Below are positions 791 through 21,603 of a stretch of DNA of 32,000 bases, in pieces. Below the pieces are notes generated by a model. The model saw only the letters and a program-made list of their open reading frames with translations. It was not told where the DNA came from and ran no database searches. The DNA comes from Bacteroidales bacterium (lineage in GTDB: Bacteria > Bacteroidota > Bacteroidia > Bacteroidales > F082): contig JAFTUF010000023.1 of NCBI GenBank assembly GCA_017466405.1, positions 8,962 to 40,961 on the forward strand, given 5' to 3'. Position 1 is the stretch's first letter, and each line of letters starts with the position of its first letter. The position numbers were made by a program, and so were the translations under genes.

Positions 791-818
791 CAACGGACAA
801 CAGACAACGGACATCAGT
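791..818. repeat. Heptamer word array CAACGGA/CAACAGA/CAACGGA/CATCAGT
   Basis: Read directly. Four 7-nt units lie 10 nt upstream of the yigZ start on the minus strand. It is an inverted copy of the array at 2919-2947. Confidence 0.8.
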
Positions 819-890
819 CTTTTTCCACACCTTAGACTTTTGACCTTAGTCTTTTGCCGAATGTTACTGCAAAGATAAAATATTTTTCAA

Positions 891-898
891 TATTTTTG
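891..898 (+). promoter_or_regulatory. Bacteroidota -7 box TAttTTTG upstream of prmC
   Basis: Exact match to TAnnTTTG. It lies only 4 nt before the ATG at 903, so the mRNA would be near-leaderless. A second near-match, TAttTTTC, is at 881-888. Confidence 0.35.
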
Positions 899-902
899 CA
901 AC

Positions 903-1784
903 ATGAAAGTAGCATCGAATTTAGTAAGAGACATTAAGAAATATTACCGCGAACAGCTTTGTTCCATTTACGATTATGATGAGGCAAACTCATTGGTTTT
1001 AATATTATTAGAACATTATTTCAAGATTGACAAAATCAAAATGGCTTTGGATCCCGACCTACGACTCAGCGAATCGGAGATGCTGACTTTTCATTTTGCC
1101 GTAAAAGATTTGTTAAAAAACAAGCCTATACAATATATAATAGGAGAAACAGAATTCTGCGACTTGAAGTTTAAAGTCAACGAGAACGTCTTGATTCCGC
1201 GACCGGAAACGGCAGAAATGATTTTTAAAATCGTCAACAGTCAACAGTCAACAGTCAACAGTCATTGTTCAATAATTGATATTGGAACCGGTTCGGGTTG
1301 TATTGCGATTAGTCTGGCGAAAGCATTTCCTAATAGTAAAATTTATGCCTTGGATATTTCAGAAGAAGCCTTGAAAGTCGCGAAAGAAAATGCTATTAAT
1401 AATAATGTAAATATCAACTTCATTCAGGATGACATTCTTAATTTGAAGAATAAAATTGAAACGAAATTTGACATCATCGTGAGCAATCCACCTTACGTGA
1501 GAGAGTTGGAAAAAGCAGAGATGCACAACAACGTTTTAGAATGGGAACCTCATAAAGCTTTATTTGTCAGCGACAATGACCCTCTGATTTTTTACAGAAG
1601 CATTTTAGAATTTGCCAAAACACATCTCAAAGAAAACGGAGAAATATGGTTTGAGATAAACGAATATCTCAGCAAAGAGATGACTGCTTTATGCCACGAA
1701 TTAGGATTTTCAGATGTTAATATTTATAAAGACTTCAGAGGGAAAGAGAGAGTTGTTAGAGTTGCTGAGTTACTAAGTTACTAA
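903..1784 (+). CDS. prmC: Peptide chain release factor N5-glutamine methyltransferase (HemK/PrmC)
   Basis: 293-aa ORF with SAM-binding loop IDIGTGSGCIAI, catalytic NPPY (VSNPPYV) and a HemK-type N-terminal helical domain. Confidence 0.9.
   Translation: MKVASNLVRDIKKYYREQLCSIYDYDEANSLVLILLEHYFKIDKIKMALDPDLRLSESEMLTFHFAVKDLLKNKPIQYIIGETEFCDLKFKVNENVLIPRPETAEMIFKIVNSQQSTVNSHCSIIDIGTGSGCIAISLAKAFPNSKIYALDISEEALKVAKENAINNNVNINFIQDDILNLKNKIETKFDIIVSNPPYVRELEKAEMHNNVLEWEPHKALFVSDNDPLIFYRSILEFAKTHLKENGEIWFEINEYLSKEMTALCHELGFSDVNIYKDFRGKERVVRVAELLSY
1233..1264 (+). repeat. GTCAACA heptamer x4.5 inside the prmC coding sequence
   Basis: gtcaaca gtcaaca gtcaaca gtcaaca gtca read directly. It encodes VNSQQSTVNSH just before the GxGxG loop. 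Confidence 0.9.
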
Positions 1785-1824
1785 GTTGCTGAGATGCTAT
1801 GTTACTAAGTTGCCAAGTTGCTTT
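1752..1824 (+). repeat. Octamer word array (GTYRCYRA family), about 9 units
   Basis: gttgctga gttactaa gttactaa gttgctga gatgctat gttactaa gttgccaa gttgcttt. The first units encode the prmC C-terminus VAELLSY and supply its TAA stop. Confidence 0.85.
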
Positions 1825-1851
1825 TGTTTTTAAGATTTAGACAATTTTGTT

Positions 1852-18608: not shown

Positions 18609-19208
18609 ATGGCAATAAAATTTCAATATAACAAAACATCGATGCAACAGCTGGAGAAGCAGTTGAAGATACGCGTGCGCACGCTACCTACCATCAAGAG
18701 TAAGGAGTCGGCGCTGCGTCTCGAGGTGAAACGCTCCAAAGAGAAAGTCGAGGAGTTCGATGAAAAACTCGAGAACATCTTGCAACAGTCTGGCGACATC
18801 TTACGTCTCTGGGGTGAGTTCAAACCCGACCTCATCAAAGTGAAAGACGTGAAATGCGGCATTAAGAAAATCGCCGGTGTCAATACTCCAGTCTATGAAG
18901 GTGCATCGTATGAGATAAAAGAATTCAGCGTTTTCAATATGCCATCGTGGATCTTAGACGGAATAGAATATATGAAGTCGTTGATCGACATCACATTGGA
19001 ACGCGAGTTCTGGGTACGTAAGATGGAGCTGCTCAGCAAGGCAAGAAAGAAAACCACTCAGAAGGTTAACCTCTACGAAAAGGTACAGATACCTGGCTTC
19101 GAAGACGCGATAAGAAAAATCAAACGCGCCCTTGAAGACGAAGACAACCTTTCTAAGGCAGCTCAGAAAATTGTTAAAATGCGTCAAGAAAAGGAGGTAG
19201 CATCATGA
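18609..19208 (+). CDS. ntpD: V-type ATPase subunit D
   Basis: 199-aa coiled-coil protein in the canonical position after B. Its stop overlaps the next start (ATGA). Confidence 0.8.
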   Translation: MAIKFQYNKTSMQQLEKQLKIRVRTLPTIKSKESALRLEVKRSKEKVEEFDEKLENILQQSGDILRLWGEFKPDLIKVKDVKCGIKKIAGVNTPVYEGASYEIKEFSVFNMPSWILDGIEYMKSLIDITLEREFWVRKMELLSKARKKTTQKVNLYEKVQIPGFEDAIRKIKRALEDEDNLSKAAQKIVKMRQEKEVAS

Positions 19209-21022
19209 TTACACCCATGACAAAACTTACGATGCTTATTTATCATCGTGACTATAAAAAATTCTTGACTGACCTCCGCGAACACGGCGTCGTTCACGTC
19301 CACGCTAAGAAACAGACTCTGCAAGACGAGAACATGAAAGCCAAGATGGCGGAAGTGAAGCATATCAATAATACGATTAAGCAATTGCTTGCTCTAAGTC
19401 AACGCTCAACAGTCAATGGTCAACAGACTTTGACGACAGAACTTCGCAATGAGGAGTTGATAACATTCATCGACAAGAAGTTCTCTGAGATTGACAGCAT
19501 CCAACAAGAAATTGCATCCTTGCAAAAAGACGATAACGTTTATGCTCAATGGGGCGACTTCCCAGAAGAGAGACTGAATCAGATTAAAGCCAACAACTGG
19601 GACGTAAGATTCTTCACCGTGCCAAGCAGAAAATATGACGAGGCATGGGAACAAGAGTTCAACGCCTACATGGTTAACGAACTGACAGGATTCAAATATT
19701 TCACAACGATTACACCTAAAGGCAAGGAAGTCAACATCGACGCAGAGACATTCCACTTCCCTTCAATGTCGAAGTCGGAGATAGAATCTAAAATAGATGG
19801 TCTCAAGAAAGAATTAGCCGAGATTAATAGTTACTTGGTCAGCGTTGCAGAAGATGCCATCGCTCATCTTCAAGAATATAAGAAGTCAGTCAACGAAGAC
19901 GCCGACTTCTATAAAGTAAGCGAAGCTGCCAACACATTGATCGACGACAAACTCATGTCGTTGGAAGGCTGGGTTCCTACTGAAATCAAAGACAACACCA
20001 TCGAATGGCTCAGCAAAGAAGACATCTACTTCGAAGCTACAGAGCCAGTGAAAGGCGTCGATAACCCTCCTATCAAACTTAAGAACAGACGTTTCGCAAG
20101 ATTATTCGAGATGATTGGAAATATGTATTCAACTCCTACTTACTGGGAGTTAGACATGACACCATTCTTCGCTCCATTCTTCGTCTTGTTCTTCGGATTC
20201 TGTATGGGCGACTGCGGCTACGGCGGGTTATTAGCATTAGTAGCTTTAGGTCTTATCATCAGCAAAAAATTCAAAGACATGCAGAACGTCTTATGGCTCG
20301 TCTTCTTCTTAGGACTCGGCACTGTCGGCATGGGTATCATCAGCGGAACATTCTTCGGAGTGCCGTTGTTGGATGTCGATATTCCATTCGTCAACAAGTT
20401 GAAAGCCGTGATGTTCAAGTCGGAAGGTTTATATTCAGCATTCTACGTTTCATTAATAATAGGTGTGTTCCAGATATTATTTGGTATGTGCCTTAAGATT
20501 ATCAACATCATCAAGATGGAAGGTTTCGCAGCCTCCTTATCGACTATAGGATGGGTCATCTTATTATTAGGTGGCATCATCACTTTCCTCGTCGATGGAA
20601 TCGGAACTCCATTCTACGCTTGTATGATAGTAGGTGCTGTATTGATATTCTTGCTTAACGGTCCGCTCAACAAGATTTACTCGCCATTCCTTAACATAGG
20701 CGCAGGCTTATGGGACACTTACAATATGGCGACAGGTCTCTTAGGCGACGTTCTCTCTTACATCAGATTGTTCGCTTTAGGTTTGTCAGGTTCTATCTTA
20801 GGTTTAGTCTTCAACGACTTAGCCGTTCAGATGAGTCCAGATATTCCTGTTGTAGGGACATTGGTAACAGTGATAATATTGGTATTCGGTCACACCATGA
20901 ACATCGGATTGTCAGCCTTGAGTGCTTTCGTTCACCCAATGCGTTTGACATTCGTCGAGTTCTACAAGAACTCAGGTTTCGTTGGTGGAGCTAAAGAATA
21001 TGAACCATTTAGGAAGAATTGA
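19205..21022 (+). CDS. ntpI: V-type ATPase subunit I (a-subunit, stator/proton-sodium channel)
   Basis: 605 aa. It has a soluble N-terminal half and a polytopic C-terminal half, with the conserved Arg motif LSYIRLFALGLSG. Confidence 0.9.
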   Translation: MITPMTKLTMLIYHRDYKKFLTDLREHGVVHVHAKKQTLQDENMKAKMAEVKHINNTIKQLLALSQRSTVNGQQTLTTELRNEELITFIDKKFSEIDSIQQEIASLQKDDNVYAQWGDFPEERLNQIKANNWDVRFFTVPSRKYDEAWEQEFNAYMVNELTGFKYFTTITPKGKEVNIDAETFHFPSMSKSEIESKIDGLKKELAEINSYLVSVAEDAIAHLQEYKKSVNEDADFYKVSEAANTLIDDKLMSLEGWVPTEIKDNTIEWLSKEDIYFEATEPVKGVDNPPIKLKNRRFARLFEMIGNMYSTPTYWELDMTPFFAPFFVLFFGFCMGDCGYGGLLALVALGLIISKKFKDMQNVLWLVFFLGLGTVGMGIISGTFFGVPLLDVDIPFVNKLKAVMFKSEGLYSAFYVSLIIGVFQILFGMCLKIINIIKMEGFAASLSTIGWVILLLGGIITFLVDGIGTPFYACMIVGAVLIFLLNGPLNKIYSPFLNIGAGLWDTYNMATGLLGDVLSYIRLFALGLSGSILGLVFNDLAVQMSPDIPVVGTLVTVIILVFGHTMNIGLSALSAFVHPMRLTFVEFYKNSGFVGGAKEYEPFRKN

Positions 21023-21045
21023 AAATTAAAAATTAAAAATTAACA
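21022..21045 (+). repeat. Heptamer array AAAATTA x3
   Basis: aaaatta aaaatta aaaatta acaatg. The first base is the last base of the ntpI TGA stop. Confidence 0.7.
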
Positions 21046-21119
21046 ATGTACGGGCGTATCGCATACGCCCTCAAAAAAAGATAATTAACAAAATAAATAA
21101 CAAATAAAAAATTAACATT

Positions 21120-21566
21120 ATGACAACATTAGTATTAGCTTACGTTGGTATCGCTCTTATGATTGGATTATGCGGTATCGGAAGTGCAATGGGTGTAACT
21201 TACGGTGGAAATGCAACCGTTGGCGCCATGAAAAAAAATGACGAAGCATTCGGTAACTACCTTGTTTTAAGTGCTTTGCCAGGTACACAAGGTTTGTACG
21301 GTTTCTTAGGATTCTTCTTGTTACAAGGAGTTTTGACACCAGAAATCACAATGAACCAAGCATTAGCAGTATTCTGCTGCGGTTTATTCCTCGGCGTTGT
21401 TGGTTTAATCTCAGCTTTACGTCAAGGTCAACTCTGCGCTAATGGTATCACAGCAATCGGTAACGGTCACGATGTCTTCGGTAAGACATTGATCTTGGCT
21501 GTTTTCCCTGAGCTTTACGCTATCATCGCTGTTGCTGCAACATTTATGATTTCATCAGCAATATGA
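21120..21566 (+). CDS. ntpK: V-type ATPase proteolipid subunit K (c-ring)
   Basis: 148 aa with four predicted TM helices. The motifs [10 protein letters not shown] and FPELYAI closely match what I recall of Enterococcus hirae NtpK. Confidence 0.9.
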
Positions 21567-21571
21567 TTTAA

Positions 21572-21603
21572 AACTGAAAATCTGAGAAACTCAGAAACTT
21601 AGA
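21572..21603 (+). repeat. Octamer word array (AnYTGAGA family)
   Basis: aactgaaa atctgaga aactcaga aacttaga. It starts 6 nt after the ntpK stop. Confidence 0.75.

Follow-up and report, generated by a model that had tools for sequence, protein, structure and literature searches.

The 32-kb stretch of DNA analysed here (the window), which matches a 71-kb ruminant gut metagenome scaffold (ENA ERZ28653963 scaffold_756), carries at many of its gene boundaries short tandem arrays of degenerate 6–8-nt units. With a probability of about 0.7, we consider these arrays to be lineage-specific hepta- and octanucleotide simple-sequence repeats of the type described as long simple-sequence repeats (LSSR) or short tandemly repeated repetitive (STRR) sequences, which would expand and contract by slippage, decay by ordinary mutation and be confined to spacers and tolerant protein loops. 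Among the observations behind this reading, the arrays gain and lose whole units between near-identical strains, and they survive almost only where a change of length is tolerated, namely in spacers and in a few protein loops.

The arrays stand out clearly from 100 block-wise dinucleotide shuffles of the window in which local dinucleotide content was kept. Tandem Repeats Finder (TRF) detected 16 non-overlapping arrays of period 6–8, whereas the shuffles averaged 2.5 and never exceeded 7; at a score of at least 40 there were 8 arrays against 0.02, and the bases within arrays amounted to 545 against 45. Arrays make up ~15% of the 2.4 kb of non-coding DNA. The initial annotation, a reading of the letters alone, had listed 14 tracts, ten of which are solid by this comparison while four are weak (8189–8215, 9519–9540, 11711–11745 and 21572–21603). 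Its statement that arrays stand at almost every gene boundary was too strong: among the 16 junctions between 791 and 21603, seven carry a strong array and three a weak one. The array-bearing junctions are essentially all the spacers longer than ~90 nt, and the short junctions of the V-type ATPase operon (17–71 nt) have none. The picture of gene-boundary placement was also incomplete, as three arrays lie within open reading frames (ORFs), in prmC (1233–1264), in the gene of a type IX secretion system (T9SS) cargo protein (11617–11682) and in ntpI (19397–19426). Finally, TCAACTT/TCAATTT (1852–1886) and AAAATTA (21022–21045), which had been listed separately, belong to a single family, TTRAAAR.

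Unit-number polymorphism between strains, proposed in the initial annotation as a check, was found at the array upstream of gyrB, at the ntpI stop and among CAACAGT units. For this comparison we used contigs that encode an identical GyrB or NtpK protein and whose flanking DNA is 96–99% identical; the compared contigs and loci come from public metagenome assemblies and are labelled L001–L241. The GACTYGGY array upstream of gyrB counts 9 units in four contigs, 4 in three, ~6 in one and none in one, with identical GyrB throughout. The sequence on the far side of this array is wholly different between the copy-number groups, and the array therefore lies on a synteny breakpoint. The heptamer array at the ntpI stop exists as alleles of 2, 3, 4, 5 and 6 units with A/G variants (L012–L020). 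Downstream of ntpK, two unrelated whole-spacer alleles occur among strains; allele B (L013 and L018) contains AAGACTA heptamers together with CAACAGT heptamers, the latter twice in L018 and three times in L013. One unit family is thus replaced by an unrelated one at the same site, and arrays can also shift between 7- and 8-nt registers.

The clearest evidence of growth from a seed comes from the ntpI stop, where comparison of the loci shows that an array can grow in place from a local single copy. Indeed, in distant Bacteroidales NtpK loci ntpI ends in …AAAAAATTAA, a single copy of the unit that is later repeated. Close relatives (~90% NtpK identity) have GAGTTAG/GAATTAA in 2–4 copies at this stop, to be set beside the AAAATTA ×3 of the window, with related heptamers in L135 and L136; L134–L136 carry AAGACTAC octamers at the ntpK 3′ site.

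The second line of evidence concerns placement. In a larger set of related low-GC loci (919 kb, 86% coding, with crude gene calls), 174 of the 212 arrays lie outside ORFs and 38 in coding DNA, a ~28-fold intergenic enrichment which fits the purging of 7/8-nt length changes from ORFs. The arrays found in coding DNA occupy variable protein loops. The variable loop of NtpI appears, from the sequences compared, to be a recurrent landing place within an ORF: the arrays at 19397–19426 of the window and at 513–540 of L135 are heptamer-derived, and L136 has at 804–838 a perfect, in-frame octamer array, AAGACAAC ×4.4. The array inside prmC adds only 2 residues compared with T. maritima HemK; its length is kept in all five alleles seen, and its sequence has drifted in L237, L238 and L240. 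For the array inside the T9SS sorting domain, we note that the encoded GNGSGNGSENGNENGNENG stretch is near the C-terminal end of the domain, so that signal recognition might be affected. As had been pointed out from the sequence, arrays supply the stop or the C-terminal codons of prmC, ORF 1880–2869 and ntpI. We presume that arrays are pressed against stops, terminators and promoters, and sometimes provide the stop codon, because the spacers are short.

Neither orientation nor structure singles out a fixed site for the arrays. They are located both before and after terminators, and beside gene 3′ ends of the 919-kb set 17 are in the sense orientation, 25 in the antisense orientation and 20 equal. 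All five of the stop-following arrays of the window conform to a three-frame-stop rule, their orientation being the one with stops in each frame, but given this 17/25/20 split the window result is a matter of chance. The statement that most arrays cannot form hairpins holds: fold z-scores range from −1.4 to +1.9 for all except 21572–21603 (z = −5.6), which folds as CUGAG-AAA-CUCAG, and most arrays are slightly less structured than their shuffles. A known or structured RNA was rejected as an identity of the arrays, since these z-scores are unremarkable and RNase P RNA is the only Rfam match of the window. Identity with repetitive extragenic palindromic (REP) sequences, bacterial interspersed mosaic elements or miniature inverted-repeat transposable elements (MITE) was likewise rejected, as palindromes are confined to the separate elements at 9546–9598, 22386–22441 and 24185–24240. 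The octamer arrays were also considered for a conserved 3′ boundary (…GAT) as the mark of a defined mobile element, but this dissolved into flanks made of decayed units or terminator T-runs. CRISPR arrays, with 24–48-nt repeats and unique spacers of similar length, do not describe arrays whose 6–8-nt units abut without spacers, in agreement with what had been said of them.

The degenerate, purine- and pyrimidine-preserving look of the units is attributable to ordinary mutation, because the ratio of transitions to transversions in arrays is about that between strains. Differences between neighbouring units of 194 arrays from the 919 kb give 480:235, i.e. 2.0, and substitutions between strains give 34:10, 22:11, 24:10, 19:8 and 29:14, about 2.4; within the window, where decayed end units are included, the count is 41:33. 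This match led us to reject transition-only degeneracy as the sign of a special mechanism or of wobble pairing.

Taken as a mechanism, slipped-strand mispairing during replication or repair would generate the arrays. A single local copy of a unit would grow into an array by unit addition, the loops formed by heptanucleotides being too large for mismatch repair, as proposed for LSSR, and transition-biased point mutation would then decay the units into their Y/R-degenerate form. Most arrays would need no dedicated protein- or RNA-binding function. The initial annotation took the recurrence of the same units at unrelated loci as an argument against slippage; this is not supported, in view of the gain and loss of units between strains, the single-copy seed and the background transition bias. 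The common generating mechanism that it evoked may still have room in the choice of units per genome.

A few unit families do recur in both orientations, as had been noticed, and they are also amplified in related genomes, such as a Candidatus Limimorpha metagenome-assembled genome (MAG). The window contains GTYRCYRA arrays at three places and CAACRGW arrays at four or more, with both orientations represented, which is what characterizes STRR-like families. The claim that units are shared beyond chance is only modestly significant in the window: 7 heptamer unit pairs fall within one mismatch against 2.1 expected (P = 0.025), and 6 octamer unit pairs within two mismatches against 1.55 expected (P = 0.012), under a deliberately generous null. 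Some arrays share more than their unit. The 21-nt core 791–811 is the perfect complement of 2919–2939 with the same variant order; 3363–3397 and 1776–1810 are 86% identical over 35 nt, including the rare variant unit AGATGCTA; and a module made of an A-run, (TCYGTTG)n and ACTTTTnnTATCTTTGCA is found upstream of different genes in the window, L133, L125 and L101. Because variant order, a rare unit and a flanking module are shared, we infer that arrays pass as copies from one locus to another, taking along their variant order and sometimes short flanks, including in inverted orientation, probably by ectopic recombination or template switching.

To see how far the octamer family extends, we scanned 185,579 species genomes with the pattern (GTYRCYRA)×4. 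Among the matches listed, GTYRCYRA arrays occupy at least 7 loci, on separate contigs and all within the first 110 matches, of one Candidatus Limimorpha MAG, and at least 5 and at least 4 loci of single Gemmatimonadaceae and Lentimicrobiaceae MAGs, respectively. The matches listed span Bacteroidota, Cyanobacteria, Actinomycetes, Gemmatimonadota, Treponema and others, and the GC content of the units tracks that of the genome. This cross-phylum breadth is what any degenerate octamer gives, since in viral contigs two permuted control octamer patterns had 9 and 5 matches against 9 for GTYRCYRA; a special pan-bacterial octamer was rejected on this ground. The non-trivial features are the clustering within genomes and the preference for periods 7 and 8. 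A literature search for the exact unit strings returned nothing relevant.

The arrays are also found at the edges of strain-variable gene cassettes, where, being multi-copy, they would act as substrates for recombination. The T9SS-cargo cassette of the window (~9602–11780, about 2.2 kb, with its gene at 10012–11709) is bounded by inverted octamer-family words and is absent from L003, L005 and L006, in which the palindromic element found at 9546–9598 of the window directly abuts the gyrB-upstream octamer array. This ~53-nt palindrome also lies between ntpI and ntpK, on the opposite strand, in L012, L013, L015, L019 and L020, and occurs in L085 and L101. It sits in different spacers according to the strain and in other Bacteroidales MAGs, often beside heptamer arrays, and in some strains substitutes for the GC-rich hairpin that separates ntpI from ntpK in the window. 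From its sequence and distribution, it looks like a small dispersed REP/MITE-like hairpin.

The DUF4143 ATPase genes look like mobile single-gene cassettes, to judge from their flanks. An exact 32-nt direct repeat (8154–8185 and 9487–9518), corresponding to the last 29 nt plus the stop of ORF 6509–8185, flanks a 1.33-kb insert (8186–9518) that contains just one gene, for an AAA_14/DUF4143 ATPase, under a promoter of its own; the last 4 codons and the stop of the ATPase are provided by the duplicated copy. The empty site, with one copy of the repeat, is found in L003 and L005. A different DUF4143 gene lies downstream of ntpK in L013, L014, L016 and L020, beside a 30–34-nt tandem duplication.

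Could the arrays themselves be products or targets of recombination or of a mobile element, such as accumulated target-site duplications or attachment-like cassette sites? The fixed 7–8 nt period resembles many target-site duplications. The gyrB-upstream array stands exactly at synteny breakpoints, with four upstream contexts and junctions at either end of the array; the T9SS-cargo cassette has its inverted octamer-family borders; prmC and ORF 1880 are framed by the heptamer arrays 787–824 and 2913–2950, which are inverted copies of each other; the whole spacer downstream of ntpK is exchanged as a cassette between strains; and in Geobacter metallireducens ISGme8 or ISGme9 accompanies 24 inverted GTTGCTYN pairs at a fixed spacing (PMC2700814). 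The 32 kb of the window lack any gene for a transposase, integrase or recombinase, however, and the unit-by-unit allelic series and the in-situ seed better suit slippage. The in-ORF arrays and most spacer arrays have no associated insertion, inverted pairs are often expected by chance when many spacers hold randomly oriented arrays, and the sole clean-ended insertion, that of the DUF4143 gene, is marked by a 32-nt duplication which is not an array. We thus regard this origin as improbable, and the cassette-edge pattern may simply result from recombination at dispersed repeats.

Another explanation is that the arrays serve as periodic platforms for a single-strand-binding protein (of the cold-shock, S1 or RNA-recognition-motif type) or for an RNA, which would keep untranslated regions (UTRs) and intercistronic RNA unstructured, or tune translation or mRNA stability, in Bacteroidota that do not rely on Shine-Dalgarno sequences. 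Such a role has been proposed for TAACTGA repeats (MacGregor 2015), and CspB binds heptamer repeats with one protein per unit (PMC4679880). It would agree with the few favoured units of each lineage, with the low structure of most arrays, with the persistence of the ntpI-stop and ntpK 3′ positions across species, with the arrays of L106, L113 and L133 that precede start codons by ~9 nt, and with the 43 of the 174 intergenic arrays located at most 40 nt before a start, which lean, with crude gene calls, towards the orientation with fewer sense stops (19 against 7). Against it, copy number goes from 0 to 9 at one site between identical flanking genes, a family is swapped for an unrelated one at the same site, arrays occur in both orientations relative to transcription without a bias at 3′ ends, and some lie past terminators or before promoters, where they would be outside the mRNA (3363–3399). 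Furthermore, the in-ORF arrays are simply translated, the units drift at a neutral transition to transversion ratio, and no candidate binder is at hand. The periodic binding array envisaged at the outset is therefore contradicted for most arrays by the lack of orientation preference, the inconsistent placement relative to terminators and promoters, the family replacement and the arrays in ORFs. Fixed orientation and position with conserved unit sequence and number are not seen overall, and only a few arrays, such as 791–818, are conserved. As a general explanation we find a binding platform unlikely, and a binding function is possible for the few conserved arrays beside start codons.

That the arrays are artefacts of metagenome assembly, chimeras or vector sequence is hardly conceivable. 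The source is a metagenome scaffold, and contigs often break at arrays: L002, L007 and L010 start in or beside them, and L022 and L023 end in or beside the arrays flanking ORF 1880–2869. These breaks fit the arrays being multi-copy and hard to assemble, and metagenome assemblies of array-rich genomes are probably incomplete at the gene boundaries. Yet base-for-base identical arrays come from independent samples and assemblers of different studies (ENA, Logan and JGI), which disposes of the artefact that had been named as a way of refuting the arrays. Moreover, the allelic variation is coherent, the in-ORF arrays preserve the reading frame, and analogous arrays exist in genomes of isolates and in fully sequenced ones, for example those of Aequorivita aquimaris and Flavobacterium spp. 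and the Treponema vincentii chromosome.

Slippage with decay in tolerant sites remains the explanation we favour, and five findings weigh against it as a complete account. The 791–818 array is identical in L237–L240 although the prmC protein differs by 5–8%; the 121-nt spacer between the UPF0029 gene and prmC is also better conserved between strains than the prmC coding sequence. Array positions at the ntpI stop and at the ntpK 3′ end persist across species with ~90% NtpK identity. Recurrence of the same unit at unrelated loci (P ~0.01–0.03, clustered within genomes) is not explained by slippage alone. Inverted pairs, such as the hairpins at 22386 and 24185, a pair in L134, the L162 hairpins described below and the Geobacter pairs, are hard to produce by simple slippage. 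Finally, slippage does not account for the strong preference for periods 7 and 8 over 5, 6 and 9–11: array-rich genomes have 105 arrays of period 7 and 184 of period 8, against 1 of period 5, 10 of period 6, 16 of period 9, 7 of period 10 and 11 of period 11.

High array density is a property of particular lineages, each with its own favoured units. Using 80 metagenome loci anchored on NtpK homologues and counting arrays of period 7 or 8 with a TRF score of at least 40, we obtained 0.22 arrays per kb for the window, 0.21 for its closest relatives, 0.32 for a separate human-gut lineage and 0.016 for other Bacteroidales (505 kb). The human-gut lineage (L162/L195, 2600–8000; NtpK 74% identical) has its own family, ATTTACG/CGTAAAT, present in six spacers of the L162 lineage. 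In L162/L195, arrays follow nearly every cistron of the V-type ATPase operon, mostly starting at or just past the stop, and because each is paired with an inverted copy, the intercistronic spacers (90–110 nt) fold as long hairpins of −15 to −34 kcal/mol.

It is conceivable, if quite unlikely, that a lineage-specific factor generates or uses hepta- and octanucleotide arrays in the array-rich lineages, which include this Bacteroidales clade, the separate human-gut clade, the cyanobacteria and the Beggiatoaceae. In one version, organisms whose translation starts without Shine-Dalgarno sequences would have a single-strand-binding protein that covers the 7–8-nt units of their UTRs and intercistronic RNA; in another, the addition of units at gene boundaries would be templated by an enzyme of repair or replication. 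If real, either would account for the strict preference for periods 7 and 8 and for genome-specific families, as well as for inverted pairs and for conserved arrays adjacent to starts, none of which plain slippage explains.

The initial annotation did not recognize the arrays as a described repeat family. The class is in fact known, as heptanucleotide-dominated LSSR and as STRR, TAACTGA, GGGNATC and GTTGCTYN repeats. LSSR have units of 5–11 nt with heptanucleotides as the most abundant class, and polymerase slippage has been proposed for their origin (Mrázek et al. 2007, as summarised in PMC4679880 and PMC4692102). LSSR share with our arrays above-chance head-to-tail short units, a strong period 7, a sporadic lineage-specific abundance and the exclusion from coding sequence of units that are not multiples of 3. 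The window arrays indeed show the traits that define LSSR, i.e. above-chance tandem units, whole-unit differences between strains and coding depletion. They differ in that octamers are as prominent as heptamers and that three arrays are in ORFs despite 7-nt units, and they come from an uncultured gut member of the Bacteroidales, on which the summarised Mrázek survey lays no emphasis.

The heptanucleotide STRR sequences of heterocystous cyanobacteria (Mazel et al. 1990; PMC4692102, PMC5088731) are also few families at many intergenic loci in both orientations, variable enough to serve as strain fingerprints. The difference is one of phylum, the window host being a member of the Bacteroidales and not a cyanobacterium. 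There is no evidence of common descent, and independent origins of the same units are possible, as the control patterns show. The 1990 STRR units are reportedly CCCCAGT, TTGGTCA and CAACAGT. The last of these would be a rotation of the GTCAACA of the window.

TAACTGA heptamer direct repeats are known from Beggiatoaceae, Cyanobacteria and five Bacteroidetes, with Paludibacter, Gramella and Aequorivita among them, as intergenic arrays of 2–43 copies, often a few nt from a start or a stop and mixed with other heptamers, with no known mechanism (MacGregor 2015, PMC4679880). Their units are different, the window octamer GTTACTGA being at best similar, and they mostly have one orientation upstream of starts, whereas the window arrays follow no orientation rule. 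The GGGNATC repeats of Xanthomonas and Nostoc are 89–93% intergenic and typically 0–50 bp from a stop, which some overlap; some form inverted pairs, and close relatives keep the locus but differ extensively in its length and sequence (Rehm et al. 2015, PMC4692102). These units are G-rich and form G-quadruplexes; those of the window are not G-rich and have no special structure.

An octanucleotide case is that of the paired GTTGCTYN sites of Geobacter metallireducens, found as 24 inverted pairs with exactly four units each and with the fixed-distance insertion sequences (IS) mentioned above; they were interpreted, without a test, as sites for a global regulator (Aklujkar et al. 2009, PMC2700814). 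They are tandem octamers with the same consensus as GTTGCTGA/GTTGCTAA of the window, multi-copy, and inverted pairs at variable distance in variable DNA. In the window the copy number is 3–9, the arrays are mostly unpaired and no IS is nearby. The contingency simple-sequence repeats (SSR) of Haemophilus and Neisseria also change their copy number by slippage, and a one-unit change in the prmC array would frameshift the gene. However, their units are of 1–5 nt and they act as switches in ORFs or promoters of surface or restriction-modification genes, while the in-ORF arrays of the window are conserved in length and most arrays are outside ORFs and promoters. Phase variation was rejected for these reasons, the prmC array being constant in length in five alleles and the variable arrays lying outside ORFs and promoters.

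The genes, arrays and related repeats of the window are collected in Table 1. Its content and closest matches point, on sequence grounds, to an uncultured member of the ruminant-gut Bacteroidales, with kinship to Candidatus Limimorpha, as the host: the assignment to Bacteroidales follows from the T9SS sorting domains, the TAnnTTTG-type promoter boxes and the closest DNA matches, together with the class A RNase P and the V-type ATPase, and the closest DNA match is a Candidatus Limimorpha MAG with 70% identity across the Vut_1 gene. Bacteroidota promoters are of the TAnnTTTG type; a scan for sigma-70 promoters was uninformative for them. The gene dnaA lies just beyond the left edge of the window (L241, 139–1569; L237, 1668–3056), so that the array-dense first 3.4 kb adjoins it. 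A link of the arrays with oriC was rejected, as the window has no perfect DnaA box and no cluster of boxes. The product of ORF 6509–8185 is presumably outer-membrane-like, from our reading of its C-terminal …KYRF.

Table 1. Genes, arrays and associated repeats of the window (positions in nt; SAM, S-adenosylmethionine; SNP, single-nucleotide polymorphism).
Feature	Position	Strand	Basis	Remarks
UPF0029/IMPACT-family gene	167–781	−
prmC	903–1784		ORF list, Pfam
Hypothetical ORF	1880–2869	−
RNase P RNA gene (class A)	2971–3332		Rfam
TPR protein gene				Precedes ORF 6509–8185
ORF	6509–8185			No Pfam match
AAA_14/DUF4143 ATPase gene	8302–9498
T9SS-cargo protein gene	10012–11709		Por_Secre_tail match
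gyrB	11955–13922
V-type ATPase operon	13941–21566			Includes ntpI and ntpK
Vut_1 transporter gene				Further right in the window
Second T9SS-cargo gene	22601–24172
Second DUF4143 ATPase gene	24324–25529
β-CASP nuclease, C25 peptidase and DUF5723 protein genes				Also in the window
Heptamer array CAACGGA/CAACAGA (CAACRGA) ×4	791–818		TRF	Within the spacer between the divergent UPF0029 gene and prmC, 10 nt upstream of the UPF0029 start
Perfect heptamer array GTCAACA ×4.6	1233–1264	+	TRF, 100% matches	Inside prmC; encodes VNSQQSTVNS immediately before the DIGTGSG SAM-binding motif (Pfam, PDB alignment)
Octamer array AGTTRCTR, AGTTGCTG/AGTTACTA ×9 (family GTYRCYRA)	1751–1824	+	TRF score 72–91	Provides the final prmC codons (…VAELLSY) and stop; ORF end at 1784
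Heptamer array TTTCAAC/TTTCAAT ×5 (reverse complement TTGAAAR)	1850–1886		TRF score 56–68	Holds the TGA stop of ORF 1880–2869 (− strand)
Heptamer array TCCGTTG/TCTGTTG (TCYGTTG) ×4	2919–2947	+	TRF	Directly upstream of the TATCTTTG −7 box (RNase P RNA gene); also upstream of ORF 1880–2869
Octamer array AGTTACTG/AGTTGCTG/AGTTGCTA ×4.4	3363–3399	+	TRF	Begins right at the end of the RNase P RNA terminator T-run
Weak AAGGCGA-type repeat, two 13–14-nt copies	8189–8215	+	Absent from TRF output at score 30	Contributes to a terminator-like hairpin where the inserted DUF4143 gene cassette has its left edge
Weak heptamer-like words CGGACAC GGACTGT TGACTAA	9519–9540	+	Absent from TRF output even at score 30	Adjoin the palindromic element; kept in strains L003 and L005
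Palindromic element, ~53 nt, GAGACGCAGC…ATATTGTTTATTTTTA…GATACGTCTC	9546–9598
Degenerate forward octamer words GTCACTTC AGTCACTC	9602–9626	+		Left edge of the strain-variable T9SS-cargo cassette
Hexamer/12-mer array AACGGGAGCGAG ×~5 (hexamer ×10)	11617–11682	+	TRF score 76–89	Inside the T9SS C-terminal sorting domain; encodes GNGSGNGSENGNENGNENG (Gly/Asn/Ser/Glu-rich low-complexity stretch)
Weak octamer array AnYTGAGA ×4	11711–11745	+	TRF score 34, 73% matches	Directly 3′ of the T9SS gene stop; a single SNP relative to L001
Octamer array GACTYGGY, GACTCGGT/GACTTGGC ×9, reverse complement of GTYRCYRA	11761–11834	−	TRF score 85–101	Units change gradually from TTAGCAAC to TCGGTGAC; situated upstream of the terminator/promoter block of gyrB
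Decayed heptamer array AGTCAAC ×4	19397–19426	+	TRF score 32–46	Inside ntpI, variable cytoplasmic loop (LSQRSTVNGQQ)
Heptamer array TTGAAAA/TTAAAAA ×4 (AAAATTA-type ×4.4)	21017–21047	+	TRF score 48	Begins in the ntpI TGA stop
Weak octamer-like tract	21572–21604	+	TRF score 33	3′ of the ntpK stop; folds as a small hairpin; belongs to one of the two alleles of this spacer
Terminator-like hairpin, arms of heptamer words AGCAACA AGCAACG GGCAATA and complement	22386–22441	+
Second heptamer-armed hairpin copy	24185–24240	+

The two heptamer-armed hairpins are 56-nt direct repeats, 84% identical, on either side of the second T9SS-cargo gene, which looks as if it had been inserted with duplication of the hairpin. 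Two longer repeats complete the inventory: a 14-nt direct repeat, ACCTTAGACTTTTG ×2, at 829–856 in the spacer between the UPF0029 gene and prmC, in what is presumed to be the 5′ leader of the UPF0029 gene, and a 23-nt tandem duplication, TATATTTGACAGTATCAAATAAA ×2.1, at 24252–24300, upstream of the second DUF4143 gene and likely in its promoter region.

In conclusion, hepta- and octanucleotide families have come up again and again from 1990 onwards, in cyanobacteria, Xanthomonas, Beggiatoaceae and Geobacter, and our study adds to this already described class an abundant clade of uncultured gut Bacteroidales, without indicating a new kind of system. The advance over the older reports lies in near-identical strains, which show change unit by unit, seeding from a single copy and arrays at the edges of cassettes. 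The puzzle of the class is why units of 7–8 nt, why only some lineages, and why each genome has units of its own. For the organism, the arrays render ~15% of its non-coding DNA hypervariable; they break short-read assemblies, can change the C-termini of proteins and would serve as strain markers.

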